Below, piece by piece: positions 486 through 3,241 of a stretch of 9,468 nucleotides of DNA (position 1 is the stretch's first letter; every line of letters starts with the position of its first letter). The position numbers and the translations under genes were made by a program. Below the pieces are notes generated by a model. The model had not been told where the DNA came from. It searched no databases and was given only the letters and a program-made list of their open reading frames with translations. Origin of the DNA: a virus (taxonomy: Duplodnaviria > Heunggongvirae > Uroviricota > Caudoviricetes); IMG/VR virus record IMGVR_UViG_2648501787_000002; one strand, 5' to 3'.

Positions 486-500
486 TCGCTTTGTCAGCGA
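486..500 (-). promoter_or_regulatory. nutR boxB-like RNA hairpin (N-utilisation site), with a possible boxA at about 518..531
   Basis: Minus-strand RNA reads UCGCUGACAAAGCGA: 5-bp stem with GACAA loop, just downstream of the cro stop. Same loop as the hairpin at 2678..2692 downstream of pL, with a compensatory change in the outer stem pair. Upstream CGCUAUUUUCACAA resembles boxA (CGCUCUUA). Confidence 0.6.
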
Positions 501-538
501 CGTAGGACGAATGTCCATTGTGAAAATAGCGGTGTTAC

Positions 539-739
539 TTATGCAGTTGTTTTTTTGTTACTTGGGAAGGGCTTTACCTCTTCCGCATAAACGCTTCCAT
601 CAGCGTTTATAGTTAAAAAAATATTTCGGCCTGCATGAATGGCCTTGTTGATCGCGCTTTGATATACACCGAGATCTTTAGCTGTCTTGGTTTGCCCAAA
701 GCGCATTGCATAATCTTTCAGGGTTATGCGTTGTTCCAT
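539..739 (-). CDS. cro: Cro repressor, lambda type
   Basis: 66-aa [68 protein letters not shown] matches lambda Cro as I recall it, with one K-to-N difference. Preceded by AAGGAGG and transcribed from pR. Confidence 0.92.
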
Positions 740-763
740 ACAACCTCCTTAGTACATGCAACC

Positions 764-840
764 ATTATCACCGCTAGAGGTAAAATAGTCAACACGCACG
801 GTGTTAGATATTTATCCCTTGCGGTGATAGATTTAACGTA
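764..840. promoter_or_regulatory. Right operator region: oR1 (766..782), oR2 (790..806), oR3 (813..829); pR on minus strand (-10 at 764..769, -35 at 787..792); pRM on plus strand (-35 TAGATA 805..810, -10 TAGATT 828..833)
   Basis: Three 17-bp sites with TATCACCGC / CAACACGCACGGTGTTA half-site architecture, arranged as in lambda. pRM geometry places the transcript start at the A of the cI ATG (840), consistent with leaderless cI mRNA as in lambda. Confidence 0.88.
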
Positions 841-1553
841 TGAGCGCAAAAAAGAAACCATTAACACAAGAGCAGCTTGAGGACGCACGTCGCCTTAAAG
901 CTATTTATGAAAAAAAGAAAAATGAACTTGGCTTATCCCAGGAATCTGTCGCAGACAAGATGGGGATGGGACAGTCAGGCGTTGGTGCTTTATTTAATGG
1001 CATCAATGCATTAAATGCTTATAACGCCGCATTGCTTGCAAAAATTCTCAACGTTAGCGTTGAAGAATTTAGCCCTTCAATCGCCAGAGAAATCTACGAG
1101 ATGTATGAAGCGGTTAGTATGCAGCCGTCACTTAGAAGTGAGTATGAGTACCCTGTTTTTTCTCATGTTCAGGCCGGGATGTTCTCGCCTGAGCTTAGAA
1201 CCTTTACCAAAGGTGATGCGGAGAGATGGGTAAGCACAACCAAAAAAGCCAGTGATTCTGCATTCTGGCTTGAGGTTGAAGGTAATTCCATGACCGCGCC
1301 AACAGGATCCAAACCTAGTTTTCCTGACGGGATGTTAATTCTGGTTGACCCTGAGCAGGCTGTTGAGCCAGGTGATTTCTGCATAGCCAGACTTGGGGGT
1401 GATGAGTTTACCTTCAAGAAACTGATCAGGGATAGCGGTCAGGTGTTTTTACAACCACTAAACCCACAGTACCCAATGATCCCATGCAATGAGAGTTGTT
1501 CCGTTGTGGGGAAAGTTATCGCCAGCCAGTGGCCTGAAGAGACGTTTGGATAA
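840..1553 (+). CDS. cI: CI repressor, lambda type (N-terminal HTH DNA-binding domain plus C-terminal LexA/S24-like autocleavage domain)
   Basis: 237-aa ORF matching lambda CI along its length as I recall it ([21 protein letters not shown] helix-turn-helix; C-terminal ...[22 protein letters not shown]). Starts at the leaderless ATG directly after pRM. Confidence 0.95.
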
Positions 1554-1560
1554 CACGTAA

Positions 1561-1998
1561 ATGATTAAAGAACGTATTTCTTATATCATTCCGATTGCGA
1601 TGGATGAAGGCAACCCAGTAACTCCAGTTCTTATCTATGAAATGGATAAAGACTCCCATGAAGTGGATCTATCATTTGGCGCTTTTTTTATCGGCCTTAA
1701 GGCTACAAAAAAATATTCCATAGGCATTGAGGTTTTCAATGCTCAAGAAATACCGATACCAATTGACACAAAACTGTACTCCAACCATAAGTTTTTTACG
1801 GTAGCAGAAGCCAACGATGGAGAAACCATCGTATCAACTTCTATGAGAATTAACTTCCCAAGGGTGAAAATTATCAAGCCTGGGATATTCGAAGTTAGAG
1901 CATCTCTGGTTAATCCTGATAAAGGCGAAGTAATTGATGTAAAAAGTTCGTTTTTTGACGTGAAGATAACAGGATCAGTTCGCGATGAGTTTAGATAA
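1561..1998 (+). CDS. Hypothetical soluble protein, first gene of a two-gene cargo module in the rexA-rexB slot
   Basis: 145-aa ORF starting 8 nt after the cI stop on the same strand. No recognisable resemblance to RexA or any family I know. Appears more AT-rich than cI. Overlaps the next ORF by 14 nt. Confidence 0.6.
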   Translation: MIKERISYIIPIAMDEGNPVTPVLIYEMDKDSHEVDLSFGAFFIGLKATKKYSIGIEVFNAQEIPIPIDTKLYSNHKFFTVAEANDGETIVSTSMRINFPRVKIIKPGIFEVRASLVNPDKGEVIDVKSSFFDVKITGSVRDEFR

Positions 1999-2356
1999 CA
2001 AGGTTGCTCAGCTTCGTCCAAATCAAAACATATCTCGCCCAATTGGACACTATTCCACTGATGATGCATACTCACGGCATGGTGGAGGAAACGGCGGAGG
2101 TAACATGCTTGAGGCTAGAGTTGCAAAGCTAGAGTCTGATGTTGAATACATCAAGCGCGATCTCGCTGAAGTAAAGTCAGATATAAAATCTGTAGATTCT
2201 CGTCTGTCAGGTATTGAGACAAGCATTAGCTCAGCAAAAATCACCATCAAGGCATCTGCGGTCGTTGTCAGTTTCGTGTTCGCATTTTGCGCCTACATTT
2301 TTGGAAGTTATGTTTCCAAAATCCTTGATGCCTTAAACGGACTCGTTCTTAAGTAA
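1985..2356 (+). CDS. Hypothetical small membrane protein: Gly-rich linker, coiled-coil segment and one C-terminal transmembrane helix
   Basis: 123-aa ORF with GGGNGGGN linker, heptad-like LEARVAKLESDVEYIKRDLAEVKSDIKSVDSRL, and hydrophobic stretch ASAVVVSFVFAFCAYIFGSYV. AGGAT lies 9 nt upstream of the ATG. Followed by a strong terminator. Not RexB-like (RexB is polytopic). Confidence 0.6.
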   Translation: MSLDNKVAQLRPNQNISRPIGHYSTDDAYSRHGGGNGGGNMLEARVAKLESDVEYIKRDLAEVKSDIKSVDSRLSGIETSISSAKITIKASAVVVSFVFAFCAYIFGSYVSKILDALNGLVLK

Positions 2357-2361
2357 CACAC

Positions 2362-2389
2362 AACCCGGCCTCAGCGCCGGGTTTTCTTT
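2362..2389 (+). terminator. Rho-independent terminator ending the cI-cargo (pRM) transcript
   Basis: Stem cccggc / gccggg (6 bp, extendable by two A-T pairs), loop ctcagc, then ttttcttt. Confidence 0.7.
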
Positions 2390-2546
2390 GCCTCACGATC
2401 CCCTTCACCCAATAACACATAACCAATTGTATTTATTTGAAAATTAATAGATACAACTCACTAAACATCGCAATTCAGATCTCTCGATCACCTCCCAAGC
2501 CACACCCCCCTGCAAAAAAATAAATCTATATAAAAAACATACAGAT

Positions 2547-2609
2547 AACCATCTGCGGTGATAAATTATCTCTGGCGGTGTTGACATAAATACCACTGGC
2601 GGTGATACT
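2547..2609 (+). promoter_or_regulatory. Left operator/promoter: oL3 (2547..2563), oL2 (2567..2583), oL1 (2591..2607); pL -35 TTGACA (2581..2586), -10 GATACT (2604..2609)
   Basis: Sequence ...ACATACAGATAACCATCTGCGGTGATAAATTATCTCTGGCGGTGTTGACATAAATACCACTGGCGGTGATACT matches lambda oL/pL as I recall it. Lambda similarity ends a few bases downstream of the -10. Confidence 0.9.
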
Positions 2610-2677
2610 AAACACATCAGCAGGACGCACTACTCACCAGGGCGGTGAATATACAACGATTCGAATATGAATCTACG

Positions 2678-2692
2678 GCGCTGACAAAGCGC
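2678..2692 (+). promoter_or_regulatory. nutL boxB-like RNA hairpin
   Basis: GCGCUGACAAAGCGC: 5-bp stem with GACAA loop, about 65 nt downstream of the expected pL start. Matches the P22-type boxB as I recall it and pairs with the site at 486..500. Confidence 0.65.
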
Positions 2693-2857
2693 AATAACCA
2701 AAGTGAACTTTGGGGTGTGGTGAAGGGTTCATGGACGGGAATATGTCGCACGTAAAGCGGCGAGGCCTGCGGGACTATTGCCGAATTGAAGTAGGCCGAA
2801 ACAGGTCGAAATGGGTCTCCCACCTACCACACCACCAAAGTTCATCAGGAGGTCTAT

Positions 2858-3241
2858 ATGACACGCAGAACTCAGTTCAAAGGCAATTCACGTTCTCGTC
2901 GTCGTGAGCGTTTAAAGGCAAAGGCATTAGCTAACGGCGTACTGGCCCGCGAAGAAGCAATAAGTTCAGAAGTATTACACCGCCCTACTCTAAGCAGAGC
3001 GCAGATTCAGGCTAAAGGTACTCACGAAACGCCTGAGCGCATAGAAGACGCTAAGCCAATTAAGTTCATGGCACAGGACGTGATCTGGCAACAGAAAGAA
3101 TACAGACGCAATCTGGAGCGAGCGGCCATTGTGTACGCGAATGAGTTTGGACATAAGCAACCAGAAACTGGTGTATGTCTTCCAAACGTAGCTCTTTACG
3201 CGGCAGGCTACAGGAAATCAAAACAACTGACAGCGAGATGA
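2858..3241 (+). CDS. N: N-type transcription antitermination protein, P22 gp24-like rather than lambda N
   Basis: 127-aa ORF, first gene after pL/nutL. AGGAGG lies 5 nt upstream. N-terminal arginine-rich motif (GNSRSRRRERLKAKAL). C-terminus VALYAAGYRKSKQLTAR resembles the P22 gene 24 C-terminus (VALYAAGHRKSKQITAR) as I recall it. Confidence 0.75.
   Translation: MTRRTQFKGNSRSRRRERLKAKALANGVLAREEAISSEVLHRPTLSRAQIQAKGTHETPERIEDAKPIKFMAQDVIWQQKEYRRNLERAAIVYANEFGHKQPETGVCLPNVALYAAGYRKSKQLTAR

Follow-up and report, generated by a model that had tools for sequence, protein, structure and literature searches.

How does a lambdoid element come to carry the immunity genes of lambda next to an N antiterminator that does not belong to lambda, and do the RNA targets of this N come with it? 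The question is raised by positions 486 to 3,241 of the IMG/VR virus record IMGVR_UViG_2648501787_000002, a stretch of 9,468 nucleotides (nt) that we call the window, at its full length. According to the list of open reading frames (ORFs) and the sequence, the window holds an early region of the lambdoid type, in reversed orientation with respect to the standard lambda map. Our answer, to which we give a probability of around 0.93, is that we are dealing with a lambdoid prophage's early regulatory region, where a lambda immunity module lies inside an N-nut module of the HK97/H-19B/933W kind.

The two nut sites and their N protein

The N-utilisation (nut) sites and the N gene comprise the following elements:

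486..500, minus strand: boxB of nutR, plus-strand TCGCTTTGTCAGCGA, minus-strand UCGCUGACAAAGCGA; RNA UCGCU-GACAA-AGCGA
505..516, minus strand: nutR spacer hairpin, GGAC-AUUC-GUCC, directly 5' of boxB (from folding)
523..531, minus strand: degenerate nutR boxA, CGCUAUUUU, consensus CGCUCUUUA (from its position and the EF120461 annotation)
2658..2673, plus strand: nutL spacer hairpin, GAUUC-GAAUAU-GAAUC (from folding)
2678..2692, plus strand: boxB of nutL, GCGCTGACAAAGCGC; RNA GCGCU-GACAA-AGCGC
2858..3241, plus strand: N antiterminator, 127 amino acids (aa) (ORF list, Pfam)

Each boxB folds as a stem of 5 base pairs (bp) closed by a GACAA pentaloop, and each lies on the transcribed strand downstream of a lambda-type promoter, pL in the case of nutL and pR in the case of nutR. 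A first-pass annotation, made from the sequence alone, had described paired GACAA hairpins with a compensatory change in the outer stem pair, and actually both hairpins are found where it had put them, the outer pair being G-C at nutL boxB and U-A at nutR boxB. There are exactly two copies of the 13-nt core CGCTGACAAAGCG in the window; allowing up to 2 mismatches, 3 matches were observed against 0.12 expected, a count reached in 0 of 200 shuffles. Furthermore, a repeat search returned the two sites as a 19-nt inverted repeat (95%), CTACG[G/T]CGCTGACAAAGCG, which means that the likeness between nutL and nutR continues 5 nt upstream (CUACG).

Regarding other phages, the nutL boxB is identical to the nutL boxB of P22 over 15 nt and both boxBs are identical in HK97, HK106 and H-19B, while the position homologous to the nutR boxB carries a nutR boxB annotation in EF120461 (HK106). 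The stem of the nutL spacer hairpin is conserved in HK106, with a different loop. Scanned with Rfam (E<=1), the whole window gave no match, which is uninformative, as Rfam contains no nut/boxB model. The nutR boxA has 2 mismatches to CGCUCUUUA and was assigned solely by its position and the EF120461 annotation, because alone it is not above chance; as a significant 9-mer by itself it was rejected.

The N gene begins 242 nt downstream of the pL start and is the first gene of the pL operon. Its product is small and basic, with an arginine-rich motif (ARM) at residues 9-22 (GNSRSRRRERLKAK) and the C-terminal tail LPNVALYAAGYRKSKQLTAR. It scores 58.5 bits on Pfam family PF25694 (cut-off 27.9), the model that P22 gp24 matches over its full length with 152 bits, and it also matches PHROG 271, 'anti-termination protein N-like'. 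In tblastn and pairwise comparisons this N was 100% identical to the N of several Stx1/Stx2 phages, 99.2% identical to those of HK97, HK106 and 933W, and 98.4% identical to that of H-19B (2 substitutions in 127 aa). We also considered a lambda-like N and rejected it: lambda N belongs to another Pfam family, PF11438, the only one that it matches (92 bits), and what the two proteins share is a marginal 48-residue match across the arginine-rich region alone (35% identity, E = 0.005). The earlier view of a P22-type rather than a lambda-type N is thus upheld and can be refined, since by its sequence the protein is classed as the HK97/933W/H-19B subtype within the P22 gp24 family; its BLASTP similarity to gp24 itself does not reach beyond the C-terminal 29 residues and the arginine-rich motif. 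Searches of PDB sequences (chains of at least 20 residues) with N and P22 gp24 as queries gave no match.

One further structure stands between nutL and N:

2705..2843, plus strand: long-range N-leader helix, arms 2705-2727 and 2819-2843, bulged A at 2834

This helix ends 4 nt before the Shine-Dalgarno sequence of N (AGGAGG, 2847-2852) and has a fold z-score of -3.7. Its base, CUUUGG/CCAAAG with the bulged A, is conserved in relatives, among which the arms occur in 13 covarying sequence versions; the mean run of consecutive pairs is 8.1 for cognate arms versus 3.3 for non-cognate arms. A rival local hairpin, CCAAAG-UGAA-CUUUGG (2698-2703 with 2708-2713), could form first during transcription. 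The N leader of lambda carries an RNase III site and, by analogy with it, the helix probably controls N translation or processing.

The junctions and the lambda immunity cassette

The exchange points were mapped by base-level three-way alignments with lambda and with H-19B, a phage of different immunity. The first-pass annotation, which had suggested a pairwise alignment against lambda and P22, had put the end of lambda similarity shortly beyond the pL -10 on one side and the cro stop on the other. Our alignments placed the junctions at 2631 and 546, so that those ends were right to within around 20 nt:

544..548, no strand: right mosaic junction, where lambda identity stops and H-19B identity starts at 546
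2616..2631, plus strand: left mosaic junction, the 16-nt ATCAGCAGGACGCACT that opens the pL transcript

The sequence ATCAGCAGGACGCACT is common to lambda and H-19B, and P22 carries part of it. Since the window equals lambda up to 2631 (pL +16) and equals H-19B from 2616, the crossover lies within these 16 nt. The right junction is around 4 nt before the cro stop codon, and beyond 2631 and 546 the DNA matches H-19B. There is also a third switch, back to lambda-like sequence, inside the 3'-end of cII, at around 152-165 in the alignment. The cII gene is therefore itself a mosaic, H-19B/VT2-Sakai-like over around 85% of its length and lambda-like near the 3'-end, which includes the oop terminator at 125-155.

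The genes and sites of the region are these:

101..400, minus strand: cII, 99 aa (ORF list; Pfam Phage_CII, 114.7 bits)
539..739, minus strand: cro (ORF list)
764..833, no strand: oR/pR/pRM region (operator comparison, promoter scan, EF120461 annotation transfer), with oR1 at 766-782, oR2 at 790-806 and oR3 at 813-829; pR with -35 at 787-792 and -10 at 764-769
840..1553, plus strand: cI repressor, 237 aa (ORF list)
1561..2356, plus strand: two overlapping cargo ORFs, 145 aa (1561-1998) and 123 aa (1985-2356)
2362..2392, plus strand: Timm-like intrinsic terminator, 2362-2383 and a T-run (EF120461 annotates Timm)
2547..2609, plus strand: oL/pL region (operator comparison, promoter scan, EF120461), with oL3 at 2547-2563, oL2 at 2567-2583 and oL1 at 2591-2607, all identical to lambda; pL with -35 at 2581-2586 and -10 at 2604-2609, transcript start at around 2616
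Downstream of N to around 9250: early-left genes (cIII/kil-like, erf, ssb and others; ORF list)

In blastn, identity to lambda was 97.8% over 525-1549, 89.5% over 2362-2648 and 91% over 98-165. It is broken at 1550-2361, where rexA/rexB are replaced, and resumes at Timm (2362). CI and lambda CI differ at 2 of 237 residues, Cro and lambda Cro at 1 of 66, both proteins of the window being identical to those of HK97 and HK106; five of the six operators (oL1-3, oR2 and oR3) are the same as in lambda and oR1 differs by one base. The promoter scan gave pL (2581-2609) and pR (792-764) as the top two sigma-70 matches in the first 3.8 kilobases (kb), with 10/12 positions each. The lambda-like character claimed for cI, cro, oR and oL/pL is borne out by these comparisons, and by its CI, Cro and operators, of lambda specificity as judged from sequence, the window is placed in the lambda immunity group. 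The change in oR1 is G-to-A at position 8 with respect to lambda and is also present in HK97 and HK106. Among the fetched loci this variant appeared in 36 of 45 matching operator sequences; in nature, lambda-immunity operators often carry it.

The place of rexA/rexB is taken by the two overlapping ORFs, both of PHROG classes of unknown function: the 145-aa ORF matches PHROG 5893 and the 123-aa ORF matches PHROG 6136. Pfam gave just weak XhlA-like coiled-coil matches below the cut-off, and neither PADLOC nor Pfam searches produced an assignment for them. By eye, the 123-aa product resembles a coiled coil whose C-terminal part has a hydrophobic segment, and the one Pfam match of this ORF is of the weak XhlA-like kind. 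These ORFs are cargo of the immunity cassette, outside the N system, and may have a role in prophage exclusion or defence. The boxB-to-boxB spacing of 2192 nt is common to 7 other IMG/VR loci and to a near-duplicate of the window (UViG_2711768075_000016, our locus L009); the comparison of the shared cargo covered L009, L050 and L024.

N and its boxB loops across IMG/VR

The claim that this regulator and its two RNA targets travel together was followed in 80 IMG/VR loci encoding an N at least 99% identical, for which enough flanking DNA was required. The survey was widened to loci found with the N proteins of g341c, VT2-Sakai and P22, around 200 loci overall, and the repressors were clustered at 90% identity. 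With the at least 99% identical N, the nutL boxB was unchanged in 81/81 cases and the nutR boxB in 75/75, at distances from 1265 to 3515 nt between the two. At least five repressor families lie between these boxBs, the lambda CI type having 27 members, the window included. Because N keeps both boxBs around at least five repressor types, regulator and targets do travel together, as had been claimed. The first-pass annotation had named as signs against it an N that is lambda-like and hairpins that are not conserved with this N type; the searches found neither.

Across the wider survey, the ARMs and the boxB loops were paired in this way:

ARM GNSRSRRRERLKAK (type of the window): loop GACAA, nutL 81/81 and nutR 75/75
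ARM GNAKTRRHERRRK (P22 type): loop GACAA, nutL in all loci surveyed
ARM GSA[A/S]GRRRERRAALQ (g341c type): GAAA tetraloop at both nut sites
ARM GT[A/S]ASRRRARRANLQ (VT2-Sakai type): GAAA tetraloop at both nut sites

The P22-type nutR sites were not captured by the survey filter, and the nutR loop of P22 itself is also GACAA. In the around 200 loci, the loop class of boxB at nutL and nutR can be predicted from the ARM class of N, with one exception. Regarding the stems, the pairs were tabulated by hand from the boxB variants gcgcu, ucgcu, cggcu, aggcu and uggcu, which were always paired, with no cell of the table holding a broken stem. Pair 1 was G-C, U-A, C-G or A-U, pair 2 was C-G, G-C or U.G, and pair 3 was G-C or C-G, the pairing being kept.

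A particular nut pair was seen in Salmonella phage Oslo (L087, around 4340-4360), whose N is 87% identical to that of the window and has the motif GTSRARRRERLKAK. Its nutL, GCUC-C-GUCAA-C-GAGC, has a GUCAA loop and a C.C closing position as in P22 nutR, and its nutR retains the GACAA loop, closed by a U.G pair. This pair is apparently intermediate or degenerate.

Since the VT2-Sakai and g341c types use GAAA, the GACAA loop marks a subclass and not all of PF25694. In the alignment the VT2-Sakai nutR-cII segment is nearly identical to that of the window, save one missing loop C; the positions compared were 1690-1740 of VT2-Sakai (L090), 4370-4415 of g341c (L088) and 486-500 of the window. Given this near-identity, a one-base insertion or deletion in boxB together with a few motif changes could switch specificity. 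We tentatively put forward, and would ourselves sooner doubt than accept, that the P22-type N family contains at least two mutually exclusive RNA-recognition classes differing by one loop nucleotide:

i) A class that may combine GACAA boxBs with a G-N...K/R motif (P22, HK97/H-19B/933W).

ii) A class that may combine true GAAA tetraloop boxBs with a G-S/T...A motif (VT2-Sakai, g341c).

No description of such a two-class switch was found in the literature searched, whose coverage leaves out most of the older phage literature.

Proposed working of the circuit, alternatives and known relatives

In the arrangement that we favour, cro, oR, cI, the cargo slot, Timm and oL/pL make up the inner module. 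The outer module has two parts: next to pL, the leader of the pL transcript, which carries nutL, together with the N-leader helix and N; next to pR, nutR, tR1 and cII. One exchange point lies in the 16 nt that open the pL transcript, the other in the final codons of cro. On derepression pL and pR would fire, each nascent RNA would form a spacer hairpin and a boxB hairpin with its GACAA loop, and the ARM of N would bind boxB. N together with NusA and other Nus factors would then make the polymerase resist downstream Rho-dependent and intrinsic terminators.

By analogy with characterised systems, N may be expected to act on nutL and nutR in this element. H-19B N/NUT is the experimentally characterised version of the N-nut module (AF034975; PMC3526286, PMC4499122). 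In H-19B, N-dependent readthrough of tR1 has been published, the ARM mutants R15C/P and R18P of N lose antitermination, and the footprint of N/NusA covers spacer and boxB (PMC3526286). The boxA-spacer-boxB of nutR in the window has every base as in H-19B, and nutL is identical from pL +1 through boxB, with the same two-hairpin nut architecture. H-19B differs in having another repressor, Cro and operators, and the interior of its N-leader helix is different. Regarding P22, the complex of its N peptide with the GACAA pentaloop boxB (NMR structure, PDB 1A4T) is included in a structural survey, according to which the loop adopts a GNRA-tetraloop-like fold, from which the C loops out and contacts one His and one Arg of the bound peptide (PMC12550061). 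From this description and the ARM alignment, these contact residues would correspond to Arg16 and Lys20 in the N of the window; the position of Lys20 is Ala in both GAAA-class N types.

Three sets of observations weigh against our interpretation. The degenerate boxA of nutR and the lack of a recognisable boxA in nutL depart from the lambda model: between pL and the nutL boxB nothing comes within 2 mismatches of the boxA consensus, while EF120461 marks a 'putative' boxA at that position. [quoted passage not shown] Secondly, the co-travel is not absolute, as locus L214 joins an N and nutL of the VT2-Sakai type to a lambda nutR. L214 (IMGVR_UViG_2531839234_000006, sites at around 1071 and 3764) is a natural mismatched recombinant with a GAAA nutL, and its right side has lambda cro, lambda nutR (GCCCUGAAAAAGGGC) and lambda cII. 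Finally, the phage DNA is a 9.3-kb fragment bracketed by IS100, lacking O, P, Q, lysis and structural genes.

This last point feeds the alternative that best survives, a serious one although we lean the other way: that nut sites and N are intact but an inert relic, with no working phage circuit; at most, they would drive the early-left genes still present once SOS is induced. The ends of the window, 1-98 and 9371-9468, form a perfect 98-nt inverted repeat, in which we recognise the istB-side end of IS100kyp, an IS21-family element. Between them, the phage DNA (99-9370) breaks off directly past the cII stop, so that O/P and the oop promoter region are removed, and on the other side it ends within a small ORF starting at 9318. 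Since the ends form this repeat, we have either a composite prophage fragment between two inverted IS100 copies or contig breaks at the IS copies. Among complete E. coli genomes none contains over 64% of the window in a single block, among PLSDB plasmids none over 31%, and the contig scan for the IS100/cII junction gave no match among species-representative genomes. Because O, P, Q, lysis and structural genes are missing, the circuit may no longer serve phage growth. Nevertheless, cI, cro, N and cII are intact, as are the six operators, the two promoters and the two nut sites, and they are 98-100% identical to the elements of viable phages. Furthermore, L009, from another assembly, holds a copy of 101-8238 that is 99.98% identical over 8.1 kb. 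The relic alternative bears in any case on the present-day use of the elements and not on their identity.

A very unlikely explanation of the match to the P22 boxB is that an unrelated N has converged on the same RNA loop, instead of N and boxB descending as one module with later mosaicism inside the gene. It draws on the central part of N, around 75 residues, where similarity to gp24 is undetectable. Nevertheless, the whole N passes the threshold of the gp24 family model, and both proteins share the last 29 residues (72%) and the motif GNx[K/R]xRRxER. The intermediates Oslo, g341c, VT2-Sakai and HK620 link the sequences, and the 15-nt identity of the nutL boxB takes in the stem, beyond what loop binding needs. 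Lastly, that the hairpins are not N targets but terminators, repressor/Cro sites or chance palindromes with a coincidental likeness to the P22 boxB can practically be dismissed: short GC-rich hairpins are common and Rfam has no model to recognise these, but as terminators they are rejected because no U-run follows either stem (neither was listed by the terminator scan), the core is hardly expected by chance, the transcribed strand carries each of them at the canonical distance from pL or the cro stop, their sequences are those of the H-19B nutR boxB, for which a footprint exists, and of the P22 nutL boxB, and their loop class tracks the ARM class of N.

Our preferred arrangement, a lambda immunity inside an HK97/H-19B-type N-nut module, is not new. 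HK97, HK106 and mEp234 (AF069529, EF120461 and EF120460) have the same mosaic, with around 98% nucleotide identity over the shared parts and with identical oR1 variant, boxBs, junctions and N-leader helix. EF120461 annotates operators, promoters, Timm and the boxA and boxB of nutL and nutR at homologous positions. The immunity regions of these phages were reportedly described by Degnan et al. 2007, Mol Microbiol 64:232. The differences concern the cargo between cI and Timm (hicAB and an ORF in HK106 and mEp234, gp49/gp48 in HK97), the nutR boxA, which is CGCUAUUUU in the window and in H-19B but CGCUCUUUU in HK97 and HK106 (a one-base difference), and the truncation of the window by IS100. Since these three phages carry the arrangement and EF120461 annotates its nut sites, it is an ordinary, already described lambdoid one.

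P22 and lambda are more distant. P22 shares PF25694, the ARM core and the GACAA pentaloop with the window, whereas gp24 has 100 aa against 127 and P22 immunity is c2/cro. In P22, nutR reads CCGCCGACAACGCGG, and a consensus boxA is present at nutL and nutR alike, in contrast to the nutL of the window. Lambda has the same layout, pL-nutL-N and pR-cro-nutR-tR1-cII, with a large helix between nutL and N and a boxB of 5-bp stem and GNRA-like pentaloop, and the immunity cassette is lambda's own. However, its boxB loops are GAAGA/GAAAA on a GCCCU stem and its boxA is near boxB.

The locus can thus be labelled in annotation as lambda immunity, HK97/H-19B-type N, nutL and nutR in a prophage remnant truncated by IS100. 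It is a case of classic modular phage evolution, in which a cassette is swapped between conserved linkers and N remains matched to its two RNA sites, the principle of cassette exchange being that of the classical imm434 and imm21 hybrids. The pairing rule between N ARM and boxB loop could guide the design of orthogonal N-boxB pairs. If the two recognition classes exist, the switch between them would keep the antiterminators of co-resident lambdoid and Stx prophages from cross-activation.

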